DNA of 64,000 nt from Leptonemataceae bacterium (GTDB lineage Bacteria > Spirochaetota > Leptospiria > Leptospirales > Leptonemataceae): positions 5,088,001 through 5,152,000 of the forward strand of contig OZ245742.1 in NCBI GenBank assembly GCA_965227295.1, written 5' to 3'. The translations under genes and the position numbers were made by a program. Under the pieces are notes generated by a model. It made no database searches. It was not told the DNA's origin and was given only the letters and a program-made list of their open reading frames with translations. Below, in pieces: positions 1 through 38,799 of the stretch (the stretch's first letter is position 1; each line of letters starts with the position of its first letter).

Positions 1-3000
1 GAGAGTGGCGGGCCGTTGGCAACGCGATTCAAGATGCCGCCGATCGAAGTGCGCCACTCGACTTCGTGTTTCACCCGCGAAGCAGTCGAATAGTCCGCTC
101 GAATGGTTTTTTCCGTTCTGTCCGCGAGACCGAAAAGATCAAGGGTCCACCCGGTGATGGTTCCTTCCGACCCGACCCCGCCGAGCAGGCCCGCACCCAG
201 GCCGTAGAAACTACCGGTCGGTCCACCTTCGAATTCGTGATTGCCCGTCGTAACGTTGTAGGCGTAATCCACCCGACCACCGAACGGCCCGCGAGACGCA
301 CCAATGCCGCCGAATTGTTCGATCTCGGTCTGCCCTTCCGAATTGACATAGTAGCGCACACCGCCGGTCAGACCGCCGGCCCAGTTCGGGTTGATGTCGC
401 CGTTCATGCCGGCGAGACCGTCAACTTCAATGCCGTTCCATACTGTCTTGCTGTACAGGGGAGCGATGCGCCAGTTCTCTTCTTGATTGAGGACCAGGTC
501 CATGGGCGGCAGGAGACGATCAGGGGAATACAGATGTAGCAGATTCGAGTTCGGGGGAAGCAGCAACACCTGGCCGTCGGGCCCCTTCAAGGGTTCGCCG
601 TCCGGGCCCACGATCGTCTCATAGAGCTGTCCGTCCTTCTCCACCAGAAATATGCCTTCCTTCTCACGCAGGCGTCTGCGTCGTTCCGCCTCGGCCCTGG
701 TTCTCAGTACGTGATCGGTCTTGCGGATGGTCAGGGTGATGGGATTGCCCCTGTCTTCTTGAGGATAATTATGCACGAGCACGTCCACATCACTCACAAA
801 GTATGTGTGCGTGTCTTCGACTTCGATGTTGTACACGACATCATCGCGCCACTCCCGGCTCACACTGGCAATCTCCGCGGCGCTGCTGCCCGTGGCGCTC
901 GCCAGCATGGATCCGTCGACCGCCGAAGACGCACTGTAGGAAAGTTGCCCGGCCTGCAGTTCGCGCACTTCGGTCCAACCCCGGCCCGCGATGTAGAACG
1001 GATGATTGAACGTGGTCTCGATCACCGGGCCGCCGTCGTCGTAGGCGACCGTGTAGATGAGATTCGTTCGGTGCACGAAGGTCTCGGTCACGGTTTTGTA
1101 CGATACACGCTGCGTCTGCTCGTCCCAGCTTAAGACACGATCGCCGACACTTACGTCTTCGATCTTTTTGTACCACTTGCCGTCCAGTTGAAACGCGCCT
1201 TCGGCATTCGGAGCCGTGCGCACCAGGGTGCCCGCAACGAAACACGTGTTGTATACGAACTCACCGTTCTGCGTATCCAGCATGCCGTCGGCCGTGCTGT
1301 AGGTTCCGCCGATCCACTTCACGGCGTCGCCGATGGCTCCGGTGAACTTATCCCAGGTCGTCTCCCGGGACTCGCCGGAGTCCCCGCTCGCCAGAAGGTT
1401 CTTCGCGTAAGTCGCCGTATGCCAGAGCGACGGATCTTCCCGCAGCAACTCAGCCTGCTCCGGCGTCAGCTTGCCCTGATGTACCATGCGATCGATATAG
1501 CGATCCTGCGCAATGGCGCGGTTTTCCTTACTGTTCCGATCCCGGAGTCGATAGAACTCTTCCAGTTCTTCCTGAGTGGCCTCTTCGGGACGATTCAGGA
1601 ACTTGTCCTCCAGGAATGCCAGACGATCCGCCATGGCCTGTTCCTTTTCACTCTGCGTTTGAAAATCGAAATCCAGGCTGATGTCGTTCGAATGCCCGGA
1701 ATACTGGCCGTTCGCGTCGACGTTTACCGTGAGCGTATTGCCCGCCGAGTAGCTGTTCAGCCCGATGCCGTACTTATCTTCCTCGCCCACCGAGTTGATG
1801 AACTGCGCGCTCTTGCTGCCGTCGGAGTTCAACGTCAACCCGAGACCGGCCGTATGCGTGGCCGAAGCGCCTTCAACCTGTTTGCCGTCCCGATAGCGAT
1901 CCACCTTCGTTTTGTACGTAAGCTGCGCGCTGATGCTGTTGTTCCCGTCCGGCGAAAAGTTCGCGCTCATGCTGCCGCCGAAGCCGCTGTCCGTGTTGTA
2001 CGATGCGCTCAGCGATCCGCCGGTGTAGCCGCCGTCCGCGCCGAAATTCATGCTTGCGTTGAGACCGTAGCCGTCGTCGCTTTGCAGGCCCGCGTTGACG
2101 CTGGCGCCGGTATAGCCCTGGCCTTCTTGAAAGTTCAGACTGCCGCCGAGGCTGAGTCCCGGCACCGGCGCCCCCGCAATCGGGATGCTACCGCTGATCG
2201 AACCGCCGAAGCCGGTATCGGAATCGTACGAAAGATTCACGCTGACGCCGGCCTTCGACGTGTAATGGTTGATCACCGACGACACGCCCGAAGCCGCCGC
2301 GGCCTTCAAAATATCTTCGCTGCTGTCACCTTTTAGATAGCCCTTGTAACCCTGTTTCGCCGCCATGTAACCGGCGAACGCGGCCGTGCCCCAGCCGGTG
2401 CCCACCGCCGCGGCCCCGGCCACGGTCTCGCCGGCCTGCACGGCCATGGCGAGCTCCGGATTGTGATCGGCGTTGCGCCACACGTAGGTAGCGCCGCCGG
2501 TCGCGAAGTCTTCCGGCTTCGGCTGCGCCGCTTCCTTCGCGGCTAACTTCTTGTTTTTGTCGGCGATGGTCGTGCGCTTGAGGAAACCGGCGAGCCCCGG
2601 AATGCCCGTGGCCTCTTCCATCTTCTCGGCCATGAGTTCGTCGGTGTAGGATTGAAACGCGGCCTTCATGCTGTCGCCGCCGAAGTCGACCTTGCCGCCG
2701 GAGACCATACCGCTGATGAAACCCGCCGGCAGCCCCGTGGCCTTGACGATCCCCTGAGTTATGACGTTGTCCGTTTCGGTCTTGATGTAATCCTTGACGG
2801 CCTCCTGCGCGGTCATGCCGCCCATGATCGAAGTAAAGATGCCCGCCGGAAAACCGGTGACCTCGGCGACGTGCGCGGCGGCCTGATTCTGTACTTCCTG
2901 CGCGACGGCCTCCTGAAAAGAAATGCCGCCGGAGAACATGGCCGTTGCCAGGGACTGCAAGAGTGAGCCGAACTTCTTCTTGCGTTTCTTCGCGGCAATC

Positions 3001-5807: not shown

Positions 5808-7460
5808 GTGGAAGATTTTGGAGTGAGAGGATATGCCAGTATCTTCGCGCCGGCCTTGCTGCCGGCCCTGTGCGCTTCGTGCGGTCCCGACCTGTTCGCC
5901 TCGTACCCTCCCGTCATCGACGCCTCCGGAGAGATTGCCGGCGTTCGCACGGAATACATCGCCTATATTGAAGATCCCGCCGACGAACTGACGCTGGAAC
6001 GGGTGCGCGGGACGCCGACAGCCTGGCGGCCGCTTGCCAACGAAACACCGACGTTCGGCTACAGCTCCTCGTCCTACTGGTTGCGCTTCCTGCTTGAAAA
6101 TCGGAGCGACGTCGAACGCGACGTAATCCTGCTGTTGAACAACGAGTACATCGATCACTTTGATCTGTACGGCATCGAGTCTTCTCCGAACACGAAAGAG
6201 GAGCCCGTGTTTCATAAATCAGGCGGCCGAGAGCATCCCTTCGCGGCCCGCGGCCTTTTACACAGAAAATACGCCTATCCGCTGACCGTTCCGCCCCGCA
6301 CGCGCTACGACGTGTACCTGCACCTGCGCTCCAGGAACAGCCTGAATATTCCGCTCTTCGTTCTGTCCCGCTCCGATTACGAAGAAATGCGCGGGCACGA
6401 AAATCTGCGCATGGGCATCTACGGCGGACTGTTCATGCTCTTGCTCATCGTCACCACGGTGGTTTATTTTTTACTGGGGCAGAGCAGTTTTTTATACTAC
6501 ATCGGCTACCTGCTGTTCAGCTTCGCCTACCAGTTCTCTCTCCAGGGTTACGCATATAAGTATCTGTGGCCGAATCATCCGGTGTGGGCCGGCATGGTGA
6601 ACACCCTGGCGTTTTCCGCCGCCGCCGCCATGGCCGCTCTCTTCGCGCGCGAATTCCTGGAAACGCGAACGCGACATCCGCGTACAAATGCCGCGTTACT
6701 CGTCGCGGCCTGTTGCTGGGTTCTGCTGCCCGTCGGCCTGTGCCTCGTTCCCGCCGGCACCCTCGAATACATCATGGCGAAGGCCCTCGCCCCCGCGACG
6801 ATCGCGATCTTCTACTTCAGCGGCTGGCAGGCCTACGTCGGCGGTTACCGGCCGGCGCGGTTCTACGTACTGGCCTGGACCGCGTACCTGCCCTTCGCGT
6901 TTTTTTATCTCTTACAGGTGAACGGCGTCGTCTCCAACGGCATTACCGGCGTGGACATGCTCGAAAACCTGGCCATCGGCATTTCCCTGGAAATGCTCAT
7001 TTTTCCCTTCGCCATCGGTGATCGCATGCGTCTGGCGCTGGATGAGGGCGAGCACTTCGGCCGACGAAATCGCGCGAAGCAGAGATCGAGCAGCGCCTCG
7101 CGGTCCTCGCGGCTGGATCATGCCGATGTGGAACGACGGCTGCATGAAGCACTGGATGTTCGTAAGATTTATCAGAATGATATTAAACTGAGCGAGCTGG
7201 CCGGCGAAATCGATCTGAACGAAAAGGATCTTTCCAGTTATCTCAACAACGTCACGGGCAAGAGCTTTTACGCTTTGATCAATGAATATCGTGTCGCCGA
7301 AGCGAAAGAACTGTTACTGGAGCAACCGGACGAAAAGATCATCACGATTGCTCACGCCGTGGGCTTCCAGTCCCTGTCCACGTTTCACAGCGCCTTCCAA
7401 AAGGCCACCGGCATGAGCCCGCGGGAGTTTCGCAAACAAAACGGCGCCGGTTCGGCGTAG
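5808..7460 (+). CDS. 7TM-DISMED2 + 7TM-DISM membrane sensor fused to AraC-family HTH
   Basis: PTFGYSSSSYWLRF (DISMED2), several TM segments with GYRPARFYVLAW, C-terminal AraC motif (FYALINEYRVAEAKELL...IAHAVGFQSLSTFHSAFQKATGMSPREFR). Start uncertain. Confidence 0.85.
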   Translation: MEDFGVRGYASIFAPALLPALCASCGPDLFASYPPVIDASGEIAGVRTEYIAYIEDPADELTLERVRGTPTAWRPLANETPTFGYSSSSYWLRFLLENRSDVERDVILLLNNEYIDHFDLYGIESSPNTKEEPVFHKSGGREHPFAARGLLHRKYAYPLTVPPRTRYDVYLHLRSRNSLNIPLFVLSRSDYEEMRGHENLRMGIYGGLFMLLLIVTTVVYFLLGQSSFLYYIGYLLFSFAYQFSLQGYAYKYLWPNHPVWAGMVNTLAFSAAAAMAALFAREFLETRTRHPRTNAALLVAACCWVLLPVGLCLVPAGTLEYIMAKALAPATIAIFYFSGWQAYVGGYRPARFYVLAWTAYLPFAFFYLLQVNGVVSNGITGVDMLENLAIGISLEMLIFPFAIGDRMRLALDEGEHFGRRNRAKQRSSSASRSSRLDHADVERRLHEALDVRKIYQNDIKLSELAGEIDLNEKDLSSYLNNVTGKSFYALINEYRVAEAKELLLEQPDEKIITIAHAVGFQSLSTFHSAFQKATGMSPREFRKQNGAGSA

Positions 7461-7471
7461 TCCGCGGTGCT

Positions 7472-8353
7472 TTAGCGGCCGCGCATTTCCCGCAATCGCC
7501 CCTGCGCGTCCTGAATCTGCTGCGTCATCTTCGGCGGCACGCGGCGCAGAAACTCTTCGAGGTTCGCCACGGCGGCGCCTTTCTTCGCTAACTTCTGCTG
7601 AACGATTCCTAAGTTGAGATAGGCCTCGAAACGATCCGGCGTGAGCCGAATGACGCGCTGATAATCCTGCTCCGCGAGTCCCAGGGCCCCCGTCTGTTGA
7701 TGCACGACGCCCAGGTTGTAATGCGCGTTGGCGTAGTTCGGATCGATCTGCAACGCGCGGCGCAACGTTCGCTCCGCCGCTTCGCGATCTCCGAGCCCGA
7801 GGTACGCCGTGGCCAGGTTCGTTTCAATGTCCGCGTTCTCTTTCAAGGCCGCAGCGTTTTCAAAGTGGCGCGCCGCCTCTTCGTAACGGCCGGCGTTGTA
7901 GTAAATGAGGCCGGCGTAAGCCTGGGCGTCGAAGTAGTCTTTGTTGATGCTGATCGCTTTGAGGAACGCCGCAAGGGCCGGCTCGTAATCGCTCGCCGAG
8001 TAAAACGCGAGGCCCATATTGTAATGATACATCGCTTCGCCCGGGCGCAACTCTACGGCCTTCTGAAAAAACTCCACCGCCTTCGGGATCTCCCCCATGC
8101 GCAGATAACTCATGCCGATGTTGTTCGGATACTCCGCGTTTTCCGGGTCGACCTCGTGGGCTTCGAGAAAGTGCGGCAACGAACGCACGAAGGCGGCCTG
8201 TTGAAAATGCGCGAGGCCGGTTTCGTTTGCGGCTTCGGCCCGAGCGCGGGCCGTGTCCGAGACCGTGGGGGAGCAGGCTGCGAGGGTCGACAGCGAAACG
8301 GACAGCAGGATCGCGAGAATTTTTTTGCGGGGTGCCATGCTCATATCCTTCAA
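7472..8353 (-). CDS. TPR-repeat lipoprotein
   Basis: Lipobox-like LAAC; repeated TPR motifs (YNMGLAFY, AHYNLGVV, AYLNLGIV); overlaps the upstream MORN gene stop. Confidence 0.85.
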   Translation of the reverse strand: MKDMSMAPRKKILAILLSVSLSTLAACSPTVSDTARARAEAANETGLAHFQQAAFVRSLPHFLEAHEVDPENAEYPNNIGMSYLRMGEIPKAVEFFQKAVELRPGEAMYHYNMGLAFYSASDYEPALAAFLKAISINKDYFDAQAYAGLIYYNAGRYEEAARHFENAAALKENADIETNLATAYLGLGDREAAERTLRRALQIDPNYANAHYNLGVVHQQTGALGLAEQDYQRVIRLTPDRFEAYLNLGIVQQKLAKKGAAVANLEEFLRRVPPKMTQQIQDAQGRLREMRGR

Positions 8354-9345
8354 GGAGTCGAGCGTTCTTCGCCCTCGATCAGCGAACCGTTTTGAAACGT
8401 TCCCGACTTTTGCGTTCCGTCCTTGAACGTCAACGTGCCGCTGCCGTGGAACTCGCCGTTCTGGAATTCGCCTTCGTAGCGCAGATAACTTACGAATTCG
8501 GACGGATATAGCATGATGCCGGAACCGGTCTGTTCTCCTTCGACGAACGTTCCGACGTACTTGCGGCCGTCGCTGTAGATGTAGGTACCCTCACCGTGCG
8601 GAATACCGTCTGCCAGGCGGCCGATGTAAACGTCCCCGCGATTAAACTGCTCGTCGCCGTACGCTAAGACGCCGTCATACATCGCACCGTCGCGCCATTC
8701 GCCGACGAAGCGTTGCCCGTCGCGCCAGACCATCATTCCACGACCGTGCATCTGGTTGTTCTTGAATTCGCCGGAGTACCGGAACTCGAACGGATCTTCG
8801 GATCCTTCCAGTGCACGTTCGTAAAAGCCGTAGCCCTCGAATCGATTTTCGCGCATCTGTCCCAGGTAATAACGCCCGTCGCCCGGATGCCGGAACTCGC
8901 CGTAGCCGTGGCGCTGACTGCCCTGCCATTCGCCGATGTAGTACTGGCCGGTATTCGCGCCGCCGAATTCGTAGCGCCCGAAGCCCTCGGACTGGTTGTC
9001 CTGGAACTGGCCGGTGTACGTACTCTGCGTGGCCGCCTGGCTTTGTTCGCCGTAGCCGTCCTTGTAACCGCCGGAAAACTCGCCGGTGTAGATGTCCTTC
9101 TCGGCGTCGATGTATCGGCCGTAGTACATCTCGCCGTCCACGAAGGTGCCGTGGAACTTCTGCCCGCCGCGGAAATCCATGTCGCCCACGCCGTTTTCGC
9201 AGTTGCCGGCGGTGCAGCGGCCGGGGGCCGGGGAGCAGTGGGAGACGGCGAGCAGCGTGCAGAAGGCACGGCAAAGCAGGCCCAGCCCGTCCCGATTCAC
9301 CCGACGATTAAGCAAGATGGACCCGCCGATCAAACCGTTGCTCAT
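8350..9345 (-). CDS. MORN-repeat protein (exported or lipoprotein)
   Basis: Many YxGxF/WxxGxxHGxG repeats; N-terminal CTAGNCENGVG. True start may be GTG at 9300. Confidence 0.85.
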   Translation of the reverse strand: MSNGLIGGSILLNRRVNRDGLGLLCRAFCTLLAVSHCSPAPGRCTAGNCENGVGDMDFRGGQKFHGTFVDGEMYYGRYIDAEKDIYTGEFSGGYKDGYGEQSQAATQSTYTGQFQDNQSEGFGRYEFGGANTGQYYIGEWQGSQRHGYGEFRHPGDGRYYLGQMRENRFEGYGFYERALEGSEDPFEFRYSGEFKNNQMHGRGMMVWRDGQRFVGEWRDGAMYDGVLAYGDEQFNRGDVYIGRLADGIPHGEGTYIYSDGRKYVGTFVEGEQTGSGIMLYPSEFVSYLRYEGEFQNGEFHGSGTLTFKDGTQKSGTFQNGSLIEGEERSTP

Positions 9346-9940
9346 TCAGATTATCGTTGTCAAAGATAGGCAATCCGCCTGCCCCGTATTCCGGCGTGAT
9401 GTGTAATTCCAGATTCGGCGCCACCGCAAACATGGTCCCGGTGTCCAAGCGCGGACATATGCCAATCACACGCGATGGGCCACCCACAGCACGATCCTTT
9501 AAAAGAACCTCAAATCCGACAAAGGTAGACCCGATAATTCCTTGAACGATAGCGTCCGCATATTCCGGACTGGATACGGCAGAAACACTGACCCAGTTCC
9601 AATCGTCAAAGTCCCCACCGAGAGTCGTCGGATCATCGGGAGGTGGCGGGCCGATACTTCCCATCAACTGCTCGTTGATCTTATCCCCCGCGATGCAAAA
9701 ATAGGAGCCGTCGCCTCCCAACTGAAACGAAAGGAAACCGACGCCGCGGGCAATAAGAGCCCCGGCAGGAAAGCCGTAGCCGTCTTCCTGGTATTTCTTT
9801 ACAATTTCCGCAGGCACGGCAGGGCCGACCGTGCGTATATGTCTCACAACGTCCACGATGGTCCTGCCGACGAGGCTTCCCGGGGAAGGGCGCAACTCAC
9901 TCAGGGGAGTCCATGTAAATTTCGACGGTTGAACACTCAT
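9308..9940 (-). CDS. Putative immunity protein for paralog 2
   Basis: ATG at 9940, 7 nt after the giant-gene stop; distantly alignable by eye to 30971..31624. Function inferred from position. Confidence 0.6.
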   Translation of the reverse strand: MSVQPSKFTWTPLSELRPSPGSLVGRTIVDVVRHIRTVGPAVPAEIVKKYQEDGYGFPAGALIARGVGFLSFQLGGDGSYFCIAGDKINEQLMGSIGPPPPDDPTTLGGDFDDWNWVSVSAVSSPEYADAIVQGIIGSTFVGFEVLLKDRAVGGPSRVIGICPRLDTGTMFAVAPNLELHITPEYGAGGLPIFDNDNLNEQRFDRRVHLA

Positions 9941-9947
9941 ACGCCCG

Positions 9948-28355: not shown

Positions 28356-29048
28356 TTAGTTACGTGAGCCGCGACGCCGGGGCTGCGGGAGGTCCGCATC
28401 GCATGCTTCGAAGAGCGCGCGGTGCGCATACACGGCGACGGAAGTGGCCGGCAGAACGCCGACGACCAGGAGCAACAGGCCGACGATCAACAGCAACGCC
28501 GTGAGCAACAGCACGGCCAGGATCGGCCAGAAACGACCGGCACTCGCGCGCCAGGAATTTTGCATGGCGTCGAAGGGATCCTGCTTCCGCGCAATCACGT
28601 ACCAGGGCGACAACGCCAATCGTACGAGCACGTAAAACGCCGCGGGCAGTGCCAGGACAAAGCAGATTGCTCCGATGATCGTCCGCGGGAACGCGGACAT
28701 CATACCCAGGCCGGGCAGTGCGAACAGGAAGAGGATCACCCCGAACGCGATTTGCAGTACGAGGTACGCGCCCAGACGTCGCCGGCCGCGAAAGCACAGG
28801 CCGGGCCTGCGCTCGTCGCCGTCCGCGAGATGGTAATGCAGGAGGCCGAGCTGCCAGTAGGCGTTGACGACGAACACCAACAGACTCATCAACAGTGCGT
28901 AGAACAGCCCATCCCCAAAATTCGCGATGCCGCGTAAGATGATGTTGCTGATCATTAAGCAGACGAAGTAGATCAACACCGCGACGGCCGACAGGATCGG
29001 CGTGTTGCGGTAGTATGTGTATGCGTTGCGGAAGACTGTGGTGATCAT
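28356..29048 (-). CDS. Multi-pass membrane protein of unknown function
   Basis: Hydrophobic, with VRLALSPWYVI...DAMQNSWRASAGRFW and LLLLVVGVLP; overlaps upstream MORN gene stop. Confidence 0.7.
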   Translation of the reverse strand: MITTVFRNAYTYYRNTPILSAVAVLIYFVCLMISNIILRGIANFGDGLFYALLMSLLVFVVNAYWQLGLLHYHLADGDERRPGLCFRGRRRLGAYLVLQIAFGVILFLFALPGLGMMSAFPRTIIGAICFVLALPAAFYVLVRLALSPWYVIARKQDPFDAMQNSWRASAGRFWPILAVLLLTALLLIVGLLLLVVGVLPATSVAVYAHRALFEACDADLPQPRRRGSRN

Positions 29049-29890
29049 GGGGCTGTGGGAACGGGAACGTCGGATTCGATGTTCCGTCGTGTTCCGTCAC
29101 TGTCTACCATTATACCGTCGTGGGGTTCGCCGTTCTGAAACGTACCTTCGAAGCGGCGGCCGTCACTGTAGTACAGCGTGCCGGAACCGTGCGGTACCAT
29201 TTCGGAAAATTCGCCGTGATAGTGGTTCGCCGGCACCGACAACGGCGCAGGCGATCGCATGACACCGTAGAGGAGCTCGCCGTCCAGCCACTCGCCGAGA
29301 GCGATCTTACCCGTCGGCCAGATCGCCATCCCGTGTCCGTGCGCTTTGCCGTAGCGAAAGCCGCCGTGGTAATGATAACCATCCGGCCGATCTTCCGTGA
29401 GCAATCCGACATAGCCCGTGCCGTCGAAGGTGTCCCGCTGAAAGTGACCGATGTAAAAACGATCCGCCGCGCGCTGGTACCCCAGGCCGGCGCGCTCGCC
29501 CTGGTTCCACTGCCCCGCATACAACGACGCGCCCGCATCGTAACGCAGGACCCCGAAGCCGTGATACTCATCGCGGCCGAAGTGTCCGGAGTACACGCGG
29601 CCTTCGGCATCGCGCAGGTAACCGTAGCCGTGTTTGTCACCGTCGTCGAACGATCCTTCGTAACGATCGCCGTGCGCGGTAACTTTCGTTCCGAAGCCGT
29701 AGGGCATTCCGTTCTCGAACGTGCCGGCGTAGAGTGATCCGTCCTCGTAGAGATATTCACCGATGCCGTCGATGCAGTTGCCGGTGGTGCACGTTCCGCC
29801 CGGTTGCGGGGTGCAGCCGGCGTTTGTCAGCAGGGCGGTCAGGATGGCGTACGCGGCGGCAAGATGGAGTGATGGGCGGTGGTGGGTCAT
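29045..29890 (-). CDS. MORN-repeat lipoprotein
   Basis: Lipobox-like NAGC, CTTGNCIDGIG, MORN repeats; start placed at MTHHRP. Confidence 0.85.
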   Translation of the reverse strand: MTHHRPSLHLAAAYAILTALLTNAGCTPQPGGTCTTGNCIDGIGEYLYEDGSLYAGTFENGMPYGFGTKVTAHGDRYEGSFDDGDKHGYGYLRDAEGRVYSGHFGRDEYHGFGVLRYDAGASLYAGQWNQGERAGLGYQRAADRFYIGHFQRDTFDGTGYVGLLTEDRPDGYHYHGGFRYGKAHGHGMAIWPTGKIALGEWLDGELLYGVMRSPAPLSVPANHYHGEFSEMVPHGSGTLYYSDGRRFEGTFQNGEPHDGIMVDSDGTRRNIESDVPVPTAP

Positions 29891-29978
29891 GGACGATGCA
29901 TGATTCCAGGTGGTTCGCCAGCGGATCAATCACGAATCGTGGGGGCTTGCGAATGTTACGGCGAAGGCGGGGCGGAAG

Positions 29979-30974
29979 TCATGGGGAGGCGGAGACGGGA
30001 ACGCCGGATTCGATTTTCATTTGCTCGCCGCCGCTGTCCACGATGATGCCGTCGTGTTGCTCGCCGTTTTGAAACGTACCTTCGAAACGACGACCGTCGG
30101 CGTAGTAGAGGGTACCGGGGCCGGAGAAGACGTCGTCCGCAAAGGAACCCTCGTAGCGCAGGAAGTCCGGGTCGTCGCCGCGGTAGTGCATAACGCCCTG
30201 GCCTTCGAACTTACCGTACACGAACTCGCCGACGTAGCGTCGACCGTCCGCGAATAGATACGTGCCCTTGCCGTGAAACTTGCCTTCTACGATGGGCCCG
30301 ATGTACTTTTCGCCGATCAAACCTTCGAGGCGCTGGTACGAGTGCACGCCGTACACGCGCTCACCTTCTTTGAACTCGCCCATAAACGTATCCCCTTCCG
30401 GCCAGAGTAAGACGCCTTTGCCGTGGAACTTGCCGTTCTTGAATTCGCCGAAGTACTTGTATTGAAACTCTTTACCGGTGCTTTCCACGACACGCTCCGC
30501 GTATCCGTAACCGTTGAGATCGTCGTCGATGTGTTCGGCGATGTACGTGCGGCCGTCGGGTATCGTCAGCACGCCAAGGCCGATGCGATCGTCCTCTTTC
30601 CACTCGCCGGTGTACTGTTGCCCTTTGAACTGCCCGCCGGTGTAGGTGTACGTGCCGTGACCGTCGTAGTGACCGTTGTCGAAGTTGCCGGTGTAGCGGC
30701 CGTTTTCAATTTCGTACGTCCCCTGGCCGTGGCGGCGGTCGTAGAGCCACTGACCTTTGTAGTAGGCGCCGTCTTTATAGCGCATCTCGCCGAAGCCGCT
30801 GCGCTCGCCGTTCAGGAACTGCCCTGTGTAGGTGCCCGTGAGGAGTTTCATCGTGCCGGTGCCGTTCGTGCACTTTCCGGACGTGCAGACGCCGGGGGTG
30901 AGTTCGGGGGCGGGCGTGCAGGTGAGGAGGGTGAGGGTGAGTGCTATGAATGATGGAACAAGGGATTGGCTCAT
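29979..30974 (-). CDS. MORN-repeat lipoprotein
   Basis: MSQSLV...LLTC, CTSGKCTNGTG, MORN repeats; ATGA overlap with the stop of 30971..31624. Confidence 0.85.
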   Translation of the reverse strand: MSQSLVPSFIALTLTLLTCTPAPELTPGVCTSGKCTNGTGTMKLLTGTYTGQFLNGERSGFGEMRYKDGAYYKGQWLYDRRHGQGTYEIENGRYTGNFDNGHYDGHGTYTYTGGQFKGQQYTGEWKEDDRIGLGVLTIPDGRTYIAEHIDDDLNGYGYAERVVESTGKEFQYKYFGEFKNGKFHGKGVLLWPEGDTFMGEFKEGERVYGVHSYQRLEGLIGEKYIGPIVEGKFHGKGTYLFADGRRYVGEFVYGKFEGQGVMHYRGDDPDFLRYEGSFADDVFSGPGTLYYADGRRFEGTFQNGEQHDGIIVDSGGEQMKIESGVPVSASP

Positions 30975-31624
30975 AGTTCGATGACTTCTTCGATAATGGA
31001 GGTGTCGAGGCGGGAGGAGTCGATGAGGTAGAAATTCGTCCCCACCGATTCCTGGTCGTTGTTCATGGCGAAGCCGATGACAATCGAGTGCCCGTGCTCG
31101 AATTCTAATTGTACGCCCCCCCAGCGATCCGGGCGGCCAGTGTATTTCTTGATTCGCTGAGTTCGCAGCAATCTTCCATACAGGACTCTCTTCCCGACGC
31201 ACCTCTGGACCACGTCATTCGAAAGATCTGGATGCTCCCGTGTGTCTATGCAAAGATAGTTACCGCGGTCATTACGGAAATCACTTACAAAAGACTGACC
31301 CGCGTCGTGTACAAAGACATCGCCAAATTCACATCCATACGCAAAAGCAAGACCGGAATCATCCGATGCCGTGAGTATAATAATCCCCCCACTTTCGGCA
31401 ATCAGACTACTGACATCAAGACTCTGCCCGTAGAGACTTTGCTTGATGTCACGACTATACTCTATGAGTTCCTCAATAGTCAGATGGCCGCATGCCACAA
31501 AAGGCGCCACACGCACAACGCTTGTCACGACCTTCCCCTTAAATTCACGAATCAAATCAGAGGCACTCGCCGCGTCCCTCCAGTGGGGGCTGGCCAGAGT
31601 GCGATATCTTCGGCTCACGATCAT
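30971..31624 (-). CDS. Putative immunity protein for paralog 3
   Basis: 4-nt overlap with the toxin stop; visibly lower GC; alignable to 9308..9940. Function inferred from position. Confidence 0.65.
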   Translation of the reverse strand: MIVSRRYRTLASPHWRDAASASDLIREFKGKVVTSVVRVAPFVACGHLTIEELIEYSRDIKQSLYGQSLDVSSLIAESGGIIILTASDDSGLAFAYGCEFGDVFVHDAGQSFVSDFRNDRGNYLCIDTREHPDLSNDVVQRCVGKRVLYGRLLRTQRIKKYTGRPDRWGGVQLEFEHGHSIVIGFAMNNDQESVGTNFYLIDSSRLDTSIIEEVIEL

Positions 31625-34600
31625 TGGCTATCCTTCAGCGTGATCCCCTGTGCCTCTGCCGCAGCGAGCACCTGCCTGATCATTGAATTTAGCTCTTCTA
31701 AGGACTTCTCCTTTCCCCCAGGTGTTTTAACCAATCCGTCGATATCATCAAGGTAAAAGTCGCCAGTCTTATAGTCAACGATACCTTCAAGATCTTCAAG
31801 ACCACCATGCTTCTCAATGAATAGCTTCAAGTCATCTAGTTGGTTCTTGAGGTTTTGCAGTTGCGTTTCTTTCATCTTGGTTAACAGCGTATGATAAAAC
31901 GTTCCCGCGCTTTCATCGAAGAAGCCCGCATCGCCGATGGCATCGGTGGATACCGCATTGGGAACCTTCTTTTTCAGAAACGCGATACAGTCTCCTGTCG
32001 CCCCCGCATCGCCCTGACACGGAATTCGCATCGGCGCAACATCAGTCCATACAACCTTGAATCGCAGGTTTTTCATAAGAGGGTTCTTATTCTGTGCGTT
32101 CCGAGCTCTCCTGACCACAAATTGATCCGCGATTTGCTTCTGCACTTTGGCCATGGTCAAGGCCGATTCATTTGTAACCATAGCGAGAATAACATTGGGA
32201 TGACCTTTCACATCGAAAATCACCTTATCTTTTCCTCCGACCTGCTTCCCTTTTGAATTCGTGATCTTAACCAGCTTGTTCGGGTTCTTCCGCAGATCCT
32301 TCGGAAGGATACGTTGAAAAAGCGGAGCTCGATTTTTCGGAGCAATATTATCCAGAGGACTGTAGCAGTTATGAACAAGAATCTTCTGCTTACCGGCGAA
32401 GAAGTTATGATGTTCCTCAACATCGATATCGTAACGCAGCGCGGGCTCGGCCAGAGGCTCTTCCCGAATCGCCCGGACAGGGATATCGCTGCCGTCCGCC
32501 GAACGCAGTTGCATACCGACCCGAAGATTCTCTACGCGAATCCACGTTTCGTTCTCCGGAACCCAGAAGCGGTGATTTCCAGTCACGACCAGAGTTTCAT
32601 CACCAACTGTCAGATGGAACCAGTGTAAGGTTTCTAGTTCATAAGCCTGAACAACCGATCGAGAGTATTGGCGACTCCGGAACGGATCGAAAGCAACCAC
32701 CGCCTCACCGGCTTCAATGGCTTCAATGGTCCTAAAACCGTCCGGCGTTAAGACTACCGTTCCCGCTGCAAAACAACTCCTGGTCGGGCAAGGATCGTAA
32801 CCGTTCCCATCCTCATCCTGCGCCTTACGCTTCGCCTTCTCATTGGCAATGGCTTTCTCCTGCTCCGCCTTACTGTACTCGCCCGGTTTTTTCCGCGGCG
32901 CCTCAATCTCACCACGCTTCAACGCCTTTTTGGCCTTTGTAACTTTGTCGGCCCCGATCCGAAAGAGCGCCTTGAACGGCCGCGCAAACATACTGGCCAC
33001 ACCGGTACCGATCGTCAGTGCGGCCGCAAGGTTCTCGCCGGCGTATATTTGCTTCGTCGCTTCAAAGAAAGTCTGCACATCGCCGACGACCGGAATCACG
33101 CCGAGAGCCAGGTTATCAATGAACGCGATGCCGGGATCCGAAACCGCGAACTCATTGATCGCGTCCATGCCGCCGCCCTTCAGCGCCTCGCCGATAGCCG
33201 CGAGCGCGCCTTCCAGCGAAGCCACGGTTTCCCGCGAGTACTCACTCGCCAGGTTCTGCGCATTTTCCAGGCCTTTGCGTAAATCGTGGAGCAGGTCGCG
33301 ATCAATAGCCTTCGTACCCAGCGGCTCTCGCAGATAAGCCTGGAAATCGTCGGTCTCTTTCCAGCGATCAATGAGGTCTTCCGAAGTCCGCGCGTTTTCC
33401 GGTTGCATTCCGTAACAAACGGAACGACTCGCGGTGCAGTAACGCACGCGATCCCGGCGCGGACCGCGGAGGTCCGCTTTATACTCTTCGCGCTTGAGGC
33501 CCAGCGCCGCAGCGGCGCGATCCCGATACTCTTCGATCGCCGCGAGGTCGTCGGTATCGACCTCGGTCTGCATGATCGTCTCTTCTTCTTTCTTGATTCC
33601 CCAGTACTCGTTGAACTCCGCCTGTTCTTTCGCGTTCAACTGCTGCGCCCAGACACCCAGCTCTTTGCCGTCGGCGTCCCAAAATTTCGTATGCGGAACA
33701 TCTACGAGTTGGGTGATGATCCGACCATTGCGTGAGGACTTGACCTTACGATATTCTTTGCGAAAAATCTGCTGTTTGACGACACCGTTGCTCTGGAACG
33801 TCAGCGTCTGACGCTGGCCGTCAACATAGCGTTCAAAGTACGTGGACTCCCCCAAAAGGCTGGACTTCTTCTTCCAGACGTTGCCCGCGGGATCGGTGTA
33901 CGTGGACTGAATATTGATCTCGGCGGTTTGCATCCGCTTGAAAAGCTTCGGGGCGCCGCCGCCTTTGATGTAATAACCGTGGCGGACAATGTTGCCGTTC
34001 GCGTCCCAGATTTTCGCACCGGCATAGTCTCCATTGGAGTGCCAGATGTCCTGGCGCAGCAGTCCCTCGTCCGTATAGATCAGCCTGTGCCGACGGCCGT
34101 CATCAAAGGTGGCCGCGAAGTATACCTGGCCGGAAGCCCGGTCGGTATGGCGACGCCAATAAGCACCCTCTTCGCCCAGCGCGGGTTGCCTGGGGATTCC
34201 GCTCTTGACTCCGGCATTAATATCGCGCGTGAGGCTTTGTGAAAAGAGCTTAGCCGGCTTCGGTTTGGAAGATGCCGCCGGTGCAGCCGCGATGGGCTTC
34301 GGGCGATTCGCGTCGTCGTTGTTGTTATTCGGCGGCGGTGCATTCGCAATCGGCTCCGAGTCCTCGTCATCCGTCGCTACGGTGTTCGTGGAATCGTCAG
34401 TCGGCCGTTCGTCCTCGGGCGGCGGGACCTCCCCATTGCGGTCGCCCGTAATGCTCTCAATGATCGAAGCAATGTCGCCGCTGCTGCTTTCGCTATCGGA
34501 GTTATCTACGTCATCGTCAGATCCGAAGACGTCCGGGAACATCTCGCCGAGATCCGGAGCATTCGAGAAAGGATCGTCTCCAAAAGGATTCAGGTCTACG

Positions 34601-37600
34601 TAGTCGCCTGGATTATTGAGCAGATCCTCCGCAGCGGCGACCTGACTTTCAATATCGTCGAGGTTCGAAATCGTTTCGAACTGTTCCGTCAAATCATCCT
34701 GCAAACCCTGCGCGTATGGACTGGTAAGCCCGTCCTGCTCGTTGTATGCGAGTAGATCGTCTCCCGCCCCGCCCAACGCCGCGGTAAATCCGTTCTCACT
34801 ATCATACCCAAAATCCAGATCACCGGCGGACCAATCGCCTCCGAAACTCAGTCCATCTTCGTCCTGGCTGAAGTCCATTCCGTACCCGGCACCGTCGACA
34901 CTCCAGCCATCCGCGCTGTCGTATGAAAACGACCCGGTTACCCCGCCGACATCATAAGAGATATCACCGGTATTATAACCGAAGCCGTTTTCCGAATCGT
35001 AGGTAAGATTGCCGAGGCCTGAATCCAGAGACCCATACGCCTCCCCGGTCGTAAGATTGTACCCGGCCTCCCAGTCATCGCCGCCGGTGCCGATCGTTAA
35101 TCCATCTTCACCGTAACCTAAGTCGAGGCCGTAACCCTCGCCGTCCATCTCCAGACCGGTGGCGGTGTTGTACGAAACATCCCCGGTAAAACCGCCGATG
35201 TCGTAGCTGATCGACGGCGTGGAGTAACTGAAGCCGTTGTCCGAGTCGTAGACTAAGTTCCCGTACTCCGAAGTTAGCGCCGCGCCGATGCCGTTCCCAT
35301 CGGAGACGTTCAGGCCGAAGCCCATATCGTCGGTTCCGAAGCTGAGGTTGCCGGCCAGGTTCCCGTCCGCGCCCACGGCGAAACCCGCGTTCCAGGTATC
35401 GCCGGACAGGCCGGCGCCGTACGAGGTAATGCCCTCGCCTTCCTGAAAGTTCATGTTCAGCCCGAGCTGCGGACCGCCCTCGCCCAGCGGGATGCCGACG
35501 CCCACCGAACCGCCGTAGCCGTCTTCAAAAGAATAGCTGAGACCGACGTTCACACCGTACTGCGACGTGAACGCATTGAGCGCACCGGACGCCGAGCCGA
35601 CGAACGCACCGGTCGTCCCGCCGTTCAGAGAACCCAGGTACGTTTGCTTCGCCGAATTGTAAGCCATCCAGATCGCCGTGCCGAGACCGGGGATGATGTT
35701 CCCCACGGAGTTCAACAAAATGCCCGCCGCCGTTTCACCGATGGTCATGGCCGTGTTTAAATCACTATGATATTGCTGATTGCGCCAGGCGTAGGTCAGC
35801 GCACCGCCGAGCATGTCCTCCGGCTGAAAGCGCGCGGCCTCACGACGATCCTGACGATACTGAGCCTTGGCAATCTCGGAGCTGACCCACATGCTGACGA
35901 GCTGCGTGACATCGTCCGAAAGATTAAACGTGTTCTGCACGTTATCCCAGAACACCGACTCGGCCCACGAACCCAGGGCCTCACCGACGTCGGCGCCGCC
36001 GAGTAAGGCCGAAAGAAACGTCGCCGGAACGCCGGTCATCTCTTCCAGTTGCGATGCGAATTGCCCGCGCACGTGACTTTCCAGCGCGCCGCCGAAGGCC
36101 GCGTGAAAGGACGCGCCGCCGAGCATGCCGAGGATCGCGGACTTCATGAGTTTTTTCATGAGCGTCACGCGCGCGGCGGCATCTTGCGCGTTTTCGAAGT
36201 AGCGGTCCCAACCGCTCTGAGCGATGCGGTTCGCCTCGACGACGTTCTCCTGAACGCCGGCGAGCTGTTCCTTAAACTGCTGCTGATTTTCTTCTAAGCC
36301 GTCGTAGAATGATCCGACGACCTCGCCCGTATCCCAGACGTCGAACAGGTCCGGCGTGGACACAAGTTGCACGGCGGAGGGCGCGGCAATGACGACGGAT
36401 TGATTGTAAGTGGCCGCCACGTAGTCGTTCACCGAAGAACCGTCGCCGCCGATCTGAATCAGCTCGCCGTTTGCAATCGCACGGTTCGCGACGATCTGAC
36501 CGCCCTGATCTTCAATCGTGAACTGAAACCGTTTCGCGGCGTCCTTGCGGTCCTTCTTGTCCTGCAACGCCTCGATTTCTTCGCCGTGGACGTCTTCCAG
36601 GGCCTCGTTTGCGTCGACGAGCCCTTCGAGGTACTCGAGGCGCGCCTTATCCTCCGCCGAGAACGGGCGCAGGTCCTCCTCCGAATACGGATTCAGCACG
36701 GACGAGATCGCCTCAAACTGCTTTTGTCTAATATCTAATGCCTGAGAGTTTAGCGTATCCGCCACCGCGAAGTTCAGCGACCCCTGCAGCGACTGCTGAA
36801 TGCCCTGTTCGAACTTCGCCAGGTTCTCCAGGTCCGGCCGGTTGCCCCGCCCGCGATTCAGAAACTCCGCCGAAAGCCGCGGCGCCGCCGCCGCGCTGGC
36901 CGCCGCAATGCCGTCCCGCTCTTTTTCGAAGGTCTTTGTGATCTGCGCCCAGTCGCCCTCGCCGGAACGATACTCTTCTTCCATGCGCGCGAGCCAGCGA
37001 TTGCGGGACTGCACGAGATCGGCCTGGCCGCCCTGAAACGCCGCGGCGGCCGTCGCCCGCTGCACGTCGGCCTCGGCCTGCCATGCCGCGTAATCGGCCC
37101 TGTACGTCGCGACCTGGGATTCCCAGTTCTGAATGGCCGGCAACAACTCGTCGCGCCAGCGGGTGAGCATGCCGCTCAGGGCGTTGTTGTAATTGCTCCA
37201 GATGTCCCGGTTGTTCTCGGCGTTGGGATCGTGCCAGTCGTAATTGACGACGATTCGGAAATAGGATTCGGGAATATGGCGCGTCCAATTTCCGCCGCTG
37301 GTAGTTGTTATAGAGTTACCCGGTTTCTGAGTTGGATTCGACGTTTTAATGACTGAGTAATCAATATCCTGACTCCTGAGAAAAACGGATGTTCCTTCAG
37401 TAGAATATGCGCCTTGCGAATTCAGAATATCTTCGGCCGTTTTTCTTTTTTTTATACTACTTCCGTACGCGCCCGTATTGGACAAATTATAGTAAACCGT
37501 ATGGGCCAGGGGATTAAGAGCTGTAGCCCCAAATATATCAACACCGTTTAGCGAGGAAATGTTTCGGAACTCACTGAATGCGGTCCGCAATGTAGATAAA

Positions 37601-38799
37601 CTCCCATGATCATGGTAGTCCGAGACTGCTTGCACATGGCCCAGAGTCATAATAGAGGCAACAAAGGCATTTTGGTTGGTCGGGAGGGTTCGATCAGGGC
37701 AGCTTGCACTGGTGCAACCGTAGTAATCATTCGTTGGCAACCGCCAACCTGTGTCTATGATCTGATCATAGTTCACTGTCCCGTTAATCAACCCATTCCA
37801 GTACGTCGTCCGCGCCGCCGCCTCCGCCTGGCGCCGTTGCATGTAGTCCGTCATCTGGACGGCAATCGCCGACAGGGGCGCGTCGTTTGCTAAGTCCTGT
37901 TTAATTGAAGCTAAAAGATTCTGCAACTCGGTGCCGGCGGCGTTCAGTTGATTCATGTCCGTCGAGCAATTCGAGCCGTGCGGGCCGCCGCAGGTTTCCT
38001 GGTAGAAGAAGCCGTTGTTCTGCAAGAGCGATTCGAGATTCGCAACGGTGGACTGAATGCCGTCGCGCACGCGCTGTTCGTAGGCGTCGATCTGTTCCAG
38101 GCTGCTCTGGAATTCCGCGTCTTTCAGCGCGAGTTCGTTCAGCAGCGACGTGTACTCCTGCTGCAACGCACCGAGGGCGAGCTGATACTCCGCGAAACCG
38201 GACTGCATGCTCTGCTGAAATTCTTCGTCCCACGCCTCGCGGTCGCCTTCCATCTCGGCGCTTGTGCTGTTTGGATCGGTGGCCGTCGTGCGCCCGCTAT
38301 CGATCGCGTCGTCGGAATCTTCCTGCGCCTCCTGCAACCGGCGATCCGAAAGATCGCTGAGAAACGCCAAACGCTCGCCTTCGATCTCCGCGTCGAGGGC
38401 CAGCTCCCAATCCGCAAAGGCCTCTTGCTTTTGTACGAGCAGTTCTTTGCGCAGATAGTCGCGATACTCCTGGGGCGAATTGAAATGATCGCTTTGCGTA
38501 ATACTGGAGAGATGACCTTCGATCTCCGTATTGACCGCGGCTTCCCACTGCGCCGCCAGCGTGAACTTGCCCTGAGAGATGACGTACTCCCACGTCTGCG
38601 CCGACTGACTGTTCGTCGCGATGTTGAAAACAGGATCCAGGGTGCCCGCCGAGTGCGCCGGCGCATTCAGATTCGGCACGGGCGCCGGTTGCGCCAGAAC
38701 CACGCCGGGGGCCACGGTCCAGACGATCATGGACGCGGCCAGAACGGCGGCCGTCCAGCGCGCGAAGAGATTGTATCGTTTTCGACGGTAAAGAATCAT
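31621..38799 (-). CDS. Giant TIGR04388-like polymorphic toxin (paralog 3, 2392 aa) with Hint and kinase-like C-terminus
   Basis: Signal peptide VLA|QPAPVP; shared motifs WEYVISQGKF, QSDHFN, LPAIQNWE; Hint CFAAGT...LVHN at 32368..32775; 248-aa C-terminus. Confidence 0.85.
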   Translation of the reverse strand: MILYRRKRYNLFARWTAAVLAASMIVWTVAPGVVLAQPAPVPNLNAPAHSAGTLDPVFNIATNSQSAQTWEYVISQGKFTLAAQWEAAVNTEIEGHLSSITQSDHFNSPQEYRDYLRKELLVQKQEAFADWELALDAEIEGERLAFLSDLSDRRLQEAQEDSDDAIDSGRTTATDPNSTSAEMEGDREAWDEEFQQSMQSGFAEYQLALGALQQEYTSLLNELALKDAEFQSSLEQIDAYEQRVRDGIQSTVANLESLLQNNGFFYQETCGGPHGSNCSTDMNQLNAAGTELQNLLASIKQDLANDAPLSAIAVQMTDYMQRRQAEAAARTTYWNGLINGTVNYDQIIDTGWRLPTNDYYGCTSASCPDRTLPTNQNAFVASIMTLGHVQAVSDYHDHGSLSTLRTAFSEFRNISSLNGVDIFGATALNPLAHTVYYNLSNTGAYGSSIKKRKTAEDILNSQGAYSTEGTSVFLRSQDIDYSVIKTSNPTQKPGNSITTTSGGNWTRHIPESYFRIVVNYDWHDPNAENNRDIWSNYNNALSGMLTRWRDELLPAIQNWESQVATYRADYAAWQAEADVQRATAAAAFQGGQADLVQSRNRWLARMEEEYRSGEGDWAQITKTFEKERDGIAAASAAAAPRLSAEFLNRGRGNRPDLENLAKFEQGIQQSLQGSLNFAVADTLNSQALDIRQKQFEAISSVLNPYSEEDLRPFSAEDKARLEYLEGLVDANEALEDVHGEEIEALQDKKDRKDAAKRFQFTIEDQGGQIVANRAIANGELIQIGGDGSSVNDYVAATYNQSVVIAAPSAVQLVSTPDLFDVWDTGEVVGSFYDGLEENQQQFKEQLAGVQENVVEANRIAQSGWDRYFENAQDAAARVTLMKKLMKSAILGMLGGASFHAAFGGALESHVRGQFASQLEEMTGVPATFLSALLGGADVGEALGSWAESVFWDNVQNTFNLSDDVTQLVSMWVSSEIAKAQYRQDRREAARFQPEDMLGGALTYAWRNQQYHSDLNTAMTIGETAAGILLNSVGNIIPGLGTAIWMAYNSAKQTYLGSLNGGTTGAFVGSASGALNAFTSQYGVNVGLSYSFEDGYGGSVGVGIPLGEGGPQLGLNMNFQEGEGITSYGAGLSGDTWNAGFAVGADGNLAGNLSFGTDDMGFGLNVSDGNGIGAALTSEYGNLVYDSDNGFSYSTPSISYDIGGFTGDVSYNTATGLEMDGEGYGLDLGYGEDGLTIGTGGDDWEAGYNLTTGEAYGSLDSGLGNLTYDSENGFGYNTGDISYDVGGVTGSFSYDSADGWSVDGAGYGMDFSQDEDGLSFGGDWSAGDLDFGYDSENGFTAALGGAGDDLLAYNEQDGLTSPYAQGLQDDLTEQFETISNLDDIESQVAAAEDLLNNPGDYVDLNPFGDDPFSNAPDLGEMFPDVFGSDDDVDNSDSESSSGDIASIIESITGDRNGEVPPPEDERPTDDSTNTVATDDEDSEPIANAPPPNNNNDDANRPKPIAAAPAASSKPKPAKLFSQSLTRDINAGVKSGIPRQPALGEEGAYWRRHTDRASGQVYFAATFDDGRRHRLIYTDEGLLRQDIWHSNGDYAGAKIWDANGNIVRHGYYIKGGGAPKLFKRMQTAEINIQSTYTDPAGNVWKKKSSLLGESTYFERYVDGQRQTLTFQSNGVVKQQIFRKEYRKVKSSRNGRIITQLVDVPHTKFWDADGKELGVWAQQLNAKEQAEFNEYWGIKKEEETIMQTEVDTDDLAAIEEYRDRAAAALGLKREEYKADLRGPRRDRVRYCTASRSVCYGMQPENARTSEDLIDRWKETDDFQAYLREPLGTKAIDRDLLHDLRKGLENAQNLASEYSRETVASLEGALAAIGEALKGGGMDAINEFAVSDPGIAFIDNLALGVIPVVGDVQTFFEATKQIYAGENLAAALTIGTGVASMFARPFKALFRIGADKVTKAKKALKRGEIEAPRKKPGEYSKAEQEKAIANEKAKRKAQDEDGNGYDPCPTRSCFAAGTVVLTPDGFRTIEAIEAGEAVVAFDPFRSRQYSRSVVQAYELETLHWFHLTVGDETLVVTGNHRFWVPENETWIRVENLRVGMQLRSADGSDIPVRAIREEPLAEPALRYDIDVEEHHNFFAGKQKILVHNCYSPLDNIAPKNRAPLFQRILPKDLRKNPNKLVKITNSKGKQVGGKDKVIFDVKGHPNVILAMVTNESALTMAKVQKQIADQFVVRRARNAQNKNPLMKNLRFKVVWTDVAPMRIPCQGDAGATGDCIAFLKKKVPNAVSTDAIGDAGFFDESAGTFYHTLLTKMKETQLQNLKNQLDDLKLFIEKHGGLEDLEGIVDYKTGDFYLDDIDGLVKTPGGKEKSLEELNSMIRQVLAAAEAQGITLKDSQ
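32368..32775 (-). other. Hint domain of paralog 3
   Basis: CFAAGTVVLTPDG...VTGNHRFW...YDIDVEEHHNFFAG...LVHN|C. Confidence 0.9.

Follow-up and report, generated by a model that had tools for sequence, protein, structure and literature searches.

A probable polymorphic toxin locus of a Leptonemataceae spirochaete, with three giant TIGR04388 proteins, Hint-bounded orphan C-termini and a recurrent gene neighbourhood

The subject of this report is a group of three giant genes, together with the genes that accompany them, in a 64,000-nucleotide stretch of contig OZ245742.1 of a Leptonemataceae bacterium (assembly GCA_965227295.1, positions 5,088,001 to 5,152,000); the whole of this stretch is referred to as the window. 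Its G+C content is ~59%, and the genes of the first 39 kb lie on the minus strand nearly throughout (Table 1). It had been predicted from the sequence that the products of the giant genes (A, B and C) are paralogues which combine a TIGR04388-like scaffold with a Hint domain, and this was borne out by scores above the curated cut-offs of both families. The TIGR04388 model (NCBIfam name 'Lepto_longest') scored 318.2, 273.5 and 330.2 bits in giants A, B and C, respectively (E-values 1.1e-94, 3.5e-81 and 2.7e-98; curated cut-off 45), and PT-HINT (PF07591) scored 62.5, 54 and 53 bits (E-values 6.6e-17, 2.8e-14 and 5.6e-14; gathering cut-off 27.7). Of the 1693 positions of the TIGR04388 model, the best matched stretches take in only those at the front (5-668, 2-339 and 10-919). 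Giants A and B share 56% identity across residues 1-1250, giant C is ~30% identical to either of them, and the conserved portion of the giants comprises the N-terminal ~1300 residues. Giant A runs off the window; its complete form (P0006, on the same contig, reaching beyond the window) has 2081 amino acids. A fourth paralogue of 1843 amino acids (P0007), with PT-HINT and another different C-terminal part, or tip, is encoded elsewhere on the same 5.94-Mb contig.

For comparison, related loci were collected from one genome per species, which yielded 14 loci (L001 to L014) in 7 genomes, these being Leptospirales/Spirochaetales metagenome-assembled genomes (MAGs), the MAG bin.39 and two Leptospira species, with a best match of 43% identity. 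The open reading frames (ORFs) of these loci were scanned with Pfam (165 of 172; giants as their last 500 amino acids, seven short L011 ORFs being left out) and compared by BLAST with the window proteins. The nearest relative of giant C is the giant of L001, with 45% identity across the N-terminal 1220 amino acids. As far as sampled, the giant family appears to be limited to Leptospirales-type spirochaetes.

Every giant of the window begins with basic residues, a single N-terminal hydrophobic segment and a conserved A/S-QPVPVP motif, features which point to an N-terminal export signal and from which the putative cleavage site was placed. In its fuller form, (A/S)-QPVPVP-x-L, the motif directly follows the predicted signal peptide (38680-38700, 17690-17710 and 5570-5590, minus strand). 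A QPVPVP-type motif is found in nearly every giant, including the N-termini in L004-L014, with Q1 and P6 at least 90% conserved in alignment A2, and may serve in sorting or recognition, or else provide a pyroglutamate N-terminus. The order of parts in giant B is a signal-peptide-like N-terminus, an alpha-rich portion of ~1000 amino acids, a Gly-rich beta region, a repeat stalk, a variable pre-Hint segment, the Hint domain and the tip. Glycine accounts for 17-26% of the giants within residues ~1100-1700, and the stalk of giant B contains ~11 tandem copies of a 69-nt unit (12997-13748; 81-88% matches) coding for 23 residues of the type GVDENGNVTGGVxGNINGTDVNA. Recombination could change the length of this stalk.

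The AlphaFold2 (AF2) model of residues 37-1236 of giant C, calculated from a 19-sequence alignment, is of modest confidence (pLDDT 64.4, pTM 0.34) and displays helices 66-112 residues long, several beta modules and, from model residue 1047, a beta-hairpin meander. The original prediction of a shared signal peptide, Gly-rich stalk and Hint domain is thus an accurate description, its 'coiled-coil arms' having the AF2 model as their sole source. The profile of the N-terminal 1200 residues (19 sequences) gave 0 PDB matches at E<=1, and Foldseek found no match to the model at E<=0.001. The best Foldseek row was the coiled-coil surface protein PrgA (2.8e-3), and VDAC, porins and designed membrane barrels were weakly matched (E 0.02-0.4, prob 0.8-0.99, ~150-190 columns) by the Gly-rich meander, a model region with pLDDT 50-65. 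The PrgA and VDAC/porin rows are to be taken as leads only. The meander raises, without establishing, the possibility that a giant inserts itself in the outer membrane.

The point at which the giants diverge is sharply defined. As had been predicted, the likeness between giants B and C ends exactly after the HN motif, their alignment stopping at the Hint-final 'LVHN' plus a few residues. In 16 of the 20 giants compared (three from the window, 15 from the related loci, P0007 and P0008), there is a Hint domain which begins with Cys (CF[VA]AGT-like), contains TxxH and ends in VHN, and each of the three window giants exceeds the cut-off of the intein_Cterm model TIGR01443. The residue after HN differs among the 16 Hint-bearing giants (Y, Q, V, D, S, A, G, K, C), being Y, D and C in the window, so that the conserved Cys/Ser/Thr nucleophile of a splicing intein is not found; therefore, cleavage rather than protein splicing is to be expected. 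Hence it is inferred that the Hint domain cuts itself and frees the C-terminal tip. A tblastn search with the three Hint domains returned only the three known copies, and no orphan cassette marked by a Hint fragment was detected.

Past this boundary, all-against-all BLAST of 14 tips (relatives and window) yielded as the sole match a 36-amino-acid linker between L004 and L013, and among the 16 ORFs directly downstream of giants no pair was matched at E<=0.1. Tips and downstream genes alike thus vary among the relatives. The complete tip A (437 amino acids) is made up of a Gly-rich beta part and a highly charged helical tail. The repeated order of giant gene, ~210-amino-acid ORF and MORN gene, which had also been pointed out, is seen behind both complete giants, B and C. 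The first ORF, dB, starts 7 nt past the giant B stop, with its ATG at 9940; the giant C stop and the dC start share an ATGA, and another ATGA is shared by the dC stop and the start of MORN4 (30974). The G+C content at third codon positions (GC3) of tips B and C and of dB and dC (Table 1) compares with 0.69-0.81 in the neighbouring genes of the locus, and a low-GC patch at ~31000-32800 spans Hint C, tip C and dC and stops before MORN4. Such a patch and such coupled ORFs are what an exchanged toxin/immunity cassette would be expected to show. As for a kinship of dB and dC, an end-to-end Smith-Waterman alignment lies 5.4 standard deviations above shuffles (0 of 500 shuffles reach the score), yet it was not confirmed: phmmer found nothing, and against 641 background ORFs dC ranks top for dB but another ORF beats dB for dC. 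A complex prediction for tip C and dC (score 0.02, mark 0.34), made without controls, weighs neither for nor against binding.

The case for toxin tips is based on the relatives, because two of them carry named families: the tip of the L004 giant is a Tox-REase-7 (36.4 bits, cut-off 25), and the tip of one L002 giant is a DUF6883 (55.6 bits, cut-off 27), a BECR RNase toxin family (BECR-Tox3) according to part of a 2026 preprint (10.64898/2026.08.28.747851). Other tips of relatives exhibit suggestive motifs but no Pfam family, namely HELFH in L006 (L006:15875-17548) and GGHAFEKH in L008 (L008:5256-6155). Several downstream genes of the relatives code for lipoproteins, including a WD40 protein in L007 (L007:16221-17174) and two proteins in L012 (L012:16117-17451), which hints that some payloads act in the periplasm.

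Table 1. Positions of the giant genes, their parts and the neighbouring genes in the window
Feature	Position	Strand	Remarks
Giant A	3..5699	minus	TIGR04388 and PT-HINT (residues 1510-1644); 1899 aa inside window, C-terminus past window start
Tip A	3-767	minus	starts after VLVHN, runs off window
AraC/7TMR-DISM	5808..7460	plus	7TMR-DISM sensor fused to AraC-type helix-turn-helix; divergent from giant A
TPR lipoprotein	7472..8353	minus	lipobox LAAC
MORN1 lipoprotein	8350..9345	minus	paralogue of MORN3 and MORN4; GC3 0.77
dB	9308..9940	minus	210 aa; no family, no signal peptide; GC3 0.57; candidate immunity gene
Giant B	9948..17828	minus	2626 aa; TIGR04388 and PT-HINT
Tip B	9948..10613	minus	221 aa after WLVHN; sequence orphan; GC3 0.64
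Hint of giant B	10614..11021	minus	Cys1 (CLPSGT), TxxH, terminal HN
RND permease 2	17988..21035	minus	ACR_tran; more divergent of the pair
RND permease 1	21032..24202	minus	ACR_tran
MFP	24206..25708	minus	periplasmic adaptor, 500 aa
MORN2tm	25883..26719	minus	membrane-anchored MORN protein
DUF922 gene	26577..27656	plus	breaks co-oriented block between membrane proteins and MORN2tm
Multi-pass membrane protein	27670..28341	minus	membrane proteins next to the L009, L008 and L001 giants are 24-27% identical
Multi-pass membrane protein	28356..29048	minus	weak GPDPase_memb match, below cut-off
MORN3 lipoprotein	29045..29929	minus	MORN
MORN4 lipoprotein	29979..30974	minus	likely start ATG at 30974
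dC	30971..31624	minus	217 aa; no family, no relatives; GC3 0.57; candidate immunity gene
Giant C	31621..38799	minus	2392 aa; TIGR04388 and PT-HINT
Tip C	31621..32367	minus	248 aa after ILVHN; sequence orphan; GC3 0.53
Hint of giant C	32368..32775	minus	CFAAGT ... ILVHN; within low-GC patch ~31000-32800

The explanation favoured here, and regarded as probable, is that the giants are Sec-exported polymorphic toxins with Hint-released tips, immunity partners and helper neighbours. Support for the polymorphic-toxin reading is indirect and comes from the mutual unlikeness of the tips and of the downstream ORFs, from the known toxin domains in two relatives and from the low-GC3 patches of tip and partner. 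The conserved front, that is, the signal peptide, ~1000 residues of very long helices and beta modules, the Gly-rich beta region and the repeat stalk, would act as a delivery scaffold; the Hint domain, with its Cys1, TxxH and terminal His-Asn, would cleave itself and thereby release the tip, the putative toxic payload. The signal-less and tightly coupled product of the ~210-amino-acid ORF (dB, dC) would be the cognate immunity protein, and the unit of Hint, tip and immunity gene would be swapped by recombination. MORN2tm, the TPR lipoprotein, the Yip1-like membrane proteins and the membrane fusion protein (MFP) with two resistance-nodulation-division (RND) permeases may assist in positioning the giant in the spirochaete envelope or in exporting it, and the conserved block of pump, MORN, TPR and membrane-protein genes is the best candidate for such helper machinery. 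In two relatives (L009, L011) these accessory neighbours are joined by an outer-membrane factor.

Several observations weigh against this explanation. The tips and partners of the window stand without relatives: below an E-value of 0.01 no Pfam family was found in tips A, B and C, dB and dC (the search, extended to E<=10, gave three rows with E 0.019-0.19), nor did the tips, dB and dC match any PADLOC model or any PDB chain below E 0.3. A search of 1.84 billion representative proteins with tip B, and a word-indexed search with tip C and dC, gave only the window's own proteins. No sequence match thus identifies the window tips as toxins or dB and dC as immunity genes, tips and partner ORFs being orphans alike, and among the relatives just 2 of the 12 tips scanned belong to a named toxin family. 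Furthermore, the tip is directly followed by the TPR gene in L001 and by a MORN gene in L006, with no small ORF between. Four of the 20 giants have no Hint domain, namely those of L003 (where the contig is truncated), L009 and L014 as well as P0008, and, because of the Hint-less giants of L009, L014 and P0008, it must be accepted that the scaffold has some role without Hint. As to the survey, it started from the giants only and not from the RND operon, seven of the 14 loci come from one MAG (bin.39), and L001 is syntenic with the window and hence not independent of it.

To go by the survey, the pump genes are not incidental neighbours. The MFP protein matches RND_mfp (TIGR01730) with 205.7 bits (cut-off 94.9), and the two permeases match ACR_tran with 472 and 761 bits. 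Orthologues of the MFP were detected in L001 (58% identity), L009 (48%), L006 (47%), L011 (42%) and L012 (33%), those of RND1 in L001 (68%), L009 (66%, partial), L006 (51%) and L012 (35%), and those of RND2 in L001 (56%), L006 (35%) and L012 (26%). In 5 of the 14 loci (L001, L006, L009, L011 and L012) a giant thus has MFP/RND orthologues within 10 kb, which amounts to 5 of the 7 other genomes (6 of 8 with the window); the two genomes with no pump near a giant are represented by an 8-kb contig (L005) and by a 1.5-kb upstream flank (L014). The pump is placed upstream and co-oriented, divergent, or downstream with respect to the giants. The linkage suggested from the window is strengthened by this recurrence in other Leptospirales genomes in varied orientation. 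It had also been stated that the MFP, both RND, the TPR and the MORN genes are co-oriented, and indeed all of them, with four MORN genes, are on the minus strand, the AraC/7TMR-DISM and DUF922 genes between them being on the plus strand.

A serious rival, which comes close to an even chance, is that the MFP and the two RND proteins merely carry out small-molecule efflux as an ordinary MdtABC-type pump, the gene order having been inherited with no functional link between pump and giants, and that the giants reach the surface otherwise. The RND proteins match generic multidrug RND models in addition to ACR_tran, the pump has its own upstream regulator-like gene in L006, L009 and L011, and no pump lies within 10 kb in 9 of the 14 giant loci. 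RND pumps are known for the transport of small molecules and not of 250-kDa proteins. The barrel likeness of the Gly-rich region would, moreover, allow self-insertion in the manner of inverse autotransporters, although this likeness comes from the low-confidence part of the model described above and includes no Foldseek match at E<=0.001. On the other hand, the proximity of pump and giants has been kept from the genus Leptospira to high-GC relatives despite RND2 identities down to 26% and differing orientation, and RND2 and giant B are not separated by any terminator-like hairpin detected on the minus strand.

The original prediction left room for an undescribed delivery route, noting the absence of TpsB, type VI secretion, type VII secretion and YD-repeat components. 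That absence holds: the 42 window ORFs scanned gave no Pfam match to POTRA/TpsB, VgrG/Hcp/PAAR, WXG/LXG or RHS. No outer-membrane factor (OEP) gene lies within the window, such genes being present in L009 and L011. That the giants, MORN2tm, the TPR protein, the Yip1-like proteins, MFP-RND-RND and the outer-membrane factor form an undescribed spirochaete-specific toxin delivery system is nevertheless considered unlikely. In such a system the RND-type tripartite machine would help to anchor the periplasmic giant or to pass it across the outer membrane, possibly with a contribution of the barrel-like central beta region, and the Hint-released payload would be presented to neighbouring cells.

It is rather improbable that the tips are directed at eukaryotic grazers or fungi instead of rival bacteria, perhaps as small kinase-like effectors, and that the downstream ORFs shield the producing cell only until export. 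In a protein atlas based on a language model, both tips are located near unnamed phage and bacterial clusters, and the look-alikes of both (0.92-0.95) include SteC effector-kinase fragment, Kinase-PolyVal, T7 kinase and OspG kinase clusters; the sub-threshold Pfam rows, which among the tips concern tip B only, include APH at E 0.19. Part of a preprint on the Leptospira-specific PT8 domain describes harm to fungi in lysate assays (bioRxiv 10.1101/2021.10.19.465003). The kinase rows, however, are rated by the tool as often due to chance, the top three have no common family, and no other tool confirmed the kinase-like lead, which is kept as a lead only. AF2 modelling of tip B from its single sequence gave a mean pLDDT of 40.6 with no fold callable, and tips B and C exhibit no pairwise similarity (z 0.5). 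The named toxin tips of the relatives are nucleases, which would fit bacterial targets as well.

The MORN proteins call for separate consideration, since they could be taken for part of the cassette. At E<=0.01 the sole Pfam match of the four proteins is PF02493, and they have no NCBIfam match of any kind, hence no MORN_2/YwqK model. MORN1, MORN3 and MORN4 are paralogues with 34-36% mutual identity, and the GC3 of the MORN genes is host-like (0.71-0.77). Orthologues of MORN2tm are found in 3 of the 14 loci (L001, 68%; L006, 49%; L013, 46%), next to giants with different tips. Of the toxin-immunity-MORN module originally proposed, the first two parts go together, Hint/tip and the ~210-amino-acid ORF sharing the low-GC3 patch, but the MORN gene lies outside the patch and MORN2tm is kept beside other tips. 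Because of this host-like GC3 and of the MORN2tm orthologues beside giants with other tips, MORN looks like a core accessory and not like a part of the swapped cassette.

The opposite assignment, in which the MORN lipoproteins would be periplasmic immunity proteins and the ~210-amino-acid ORFs chaperones or adaptors for the tips, is accordingly very unlikely: a MORN gene does follow each complete cassette, and YwqK-type antitoxins are MORN variants, but the MORN genes differ in GC3 from the tips and from dB and dC, the three lipoproteins resemble one another though the tips are unrelated, MORN2tm adjoins different tips, and no YwqK-type model is matched. Repeat proteins such as Imm-ank and ImmHEAT do serve as immunity proteins in polymorphic toxin systems, as stated in part of Zhang et al. 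2012 (PMC3482391). Equally slight is the chance that the giants are structural envelope proteins whose Hint domain serves maturation or covalent attachment of the N-fragment and whose variable C-terminus is a discarded pro-piece, for although NCBI gives the relatives the bare name 'TIGR04388 family protein' with no functional name, three complete giants have no Hint at all, conservation is confined to the N-terminal ~1300 residues and Hedgehog-type Hint domains transfer their N-fragment to lipid, a discarded pro-piece would not be expected to contain a Tox-REase-7 or BECR RNase domain, or to be unique to each paralogue, of foreign base composition and accompanied by a downstream gene that is translationally coupled to it and co-varies with it.

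The remaining neighbours are of varied character. TPR genes adjoin giants in 8 of the 14 loci, and orthologues of the window TPR protein do so in L008 (55%), L009 (39%), L002 (35%) and L013 (32%). Relatives of the first multi-pass membrane protein (27670-28341) have a Pfam Yip1 match in L009 and L008 and no Pfam match in L001. The AraC/7TMR-DISM gene has a 53% identical orthologue in L010 (L010:8099-9778) that is likewise placed divergently next to a giant gene, and the giants of L002 and L010 are flanked by further 7TMR-DISM proteins, fused to AraC or cyclase domains; these neighbours suggest signal-controlled expression of the giants. The codon-position GC pattern of a minus-strand ORF (26469-27266) overlapping the DUF922 gene is antisense-like, and this ORF probably does not represent a gene.

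Upstream of giant C, the ORF u376 (39091-40221, minus strand) codes for 376 amino acids with a signal peptide and a C-terminal '...WWLSVGYSFSI', and has the look of an outer-membrane beta-barrel. It was considered as an outer-membrane partner and set aside: its orthologue (56%) was found only in the syntenic L001, and a strong terminator-like hairpin (38989-38952, minus strand, 17-bp stem) parts it from giant C. The DUF1577 gene, the phosphoribosyltransferase-like gene and Lnt at 40364-44188 are syntenic with L001:18015-23654 (46-61% identity), the giant gene being inverted relative to them in L001. A haem-uptake cluster at 50962-58442 (TonB-dependent receptor, HmuY, TonB, ExbB, ankyrin-repeat protein and haem oxygenase) is unrelated to the giants.

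None of the well-studied toxin-delivery systems has been assigned to this spirochaete giant family. The name 'TIGR04388' was not found in the literature searched, and searches on Leptospira with RND, or on MORN with immunity, gave nothing relevant. With its three scaffolds, its two complete pairs of tip and partner and its conserved block of accessory genes, the locus is a compact and testable set from which it could be learned by what means large toxins are delivered in a diderm whose envelope is unusual, and it adds several payload and partner families for which no relatives are known. Should the link to the pump prove functional, the accepted range of cargo for RND-type machines would be widened.

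A large protein and a toxin domain of leptospires have been described in terms similar to those used here. LA_3725 of L. interrogans is a large protein with an N-terminal membrane segment and PF07591 near its C-terminus, and in the part of PMC4751964 that deals with it, it is read as polymorphic-toxin-like. PT8, a Leptospiraceae-specific polymorphic toxin domain, is toxic when expressed, and no secretion route is assigned to it in the part of the text drawn on here (bioRxiv 10.1101/2021.10.19.465003). Both LA_3725 and the PT8 carrier are likened to the giants by these partial descriptions only, the window tips being unrelated orphans, and a pump, MORN or TPR neighbourhood is not mentioned in the parts of the two texts concerned.

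The Hint domain itself resembles inteins and bacterial intein-like domains in its N-terminal Cys, TxxH, C-terminal His-Asn and TIGR01443 match, and differs from splicing inteins in that the residue after HN is not a conserved Cys/Ser/Thr. The pump resembles MdtABC-type tripartite RND pumps in that a single operon encodes one adaptor and then two distinct RND permeases, with an outer-membrane factor gene nearby in L009 and L011; unlike in MdtABC, its scores are far below the MdtB/MdtC equivalog cut-offs, the window has no outer-membrane factor gene, and the pump is linked to giant genes across genomes. With CdiB/CdiA (type Vb) the locus has in common a very large Sec-exported stalked protein, a swappable and here putatively toxic C-terminus, an adjacent gene that is here a candidate for immunity, and several paralogues per genome. 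It differs from that system in having no TpsB/POTRA partner, two-partner secretion (TPS) domain, haemagglutinin repeats or VENN boundary, the boundary here being a Hint domain ending in HN, and in that the giants are neighboured by MFP/RND, MORN, TPR and Yip1-like genes.

The closest likeness in general design is to the PT-HINT polymorphic toxins (Zhang et al. 2012, including Rhs, MafB and filamentous-haemagglutinin types), with which the giants share the N-terminal signal, the long repetitive or filamentous middle, PT-HINT, the hypervariable tip, the small downstream gene and the foreign base composition of tip and partner. In contrast to those toxins, the window giants have no RHS/YD, haemagglutinin, TPS, PAAR/VgrG, LXG/WXG or MuF parts and are built on the TIGR04388 scaffold instead; as distinct from Rhs/YD toxins in particular, the full-length giants gave no RHS_repeat match. 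The words 'Leptospira' and 'MORN' were not found in the portion of the text of PMC3482391 that was covered. While the general design is thus the known one of polymorphic toxins, as laid out in that portion, what is new here is the conserved accessory neighbourhood of the scaffold, the orphan payload/partner pairs and the compositional evidence of cassette exchange.

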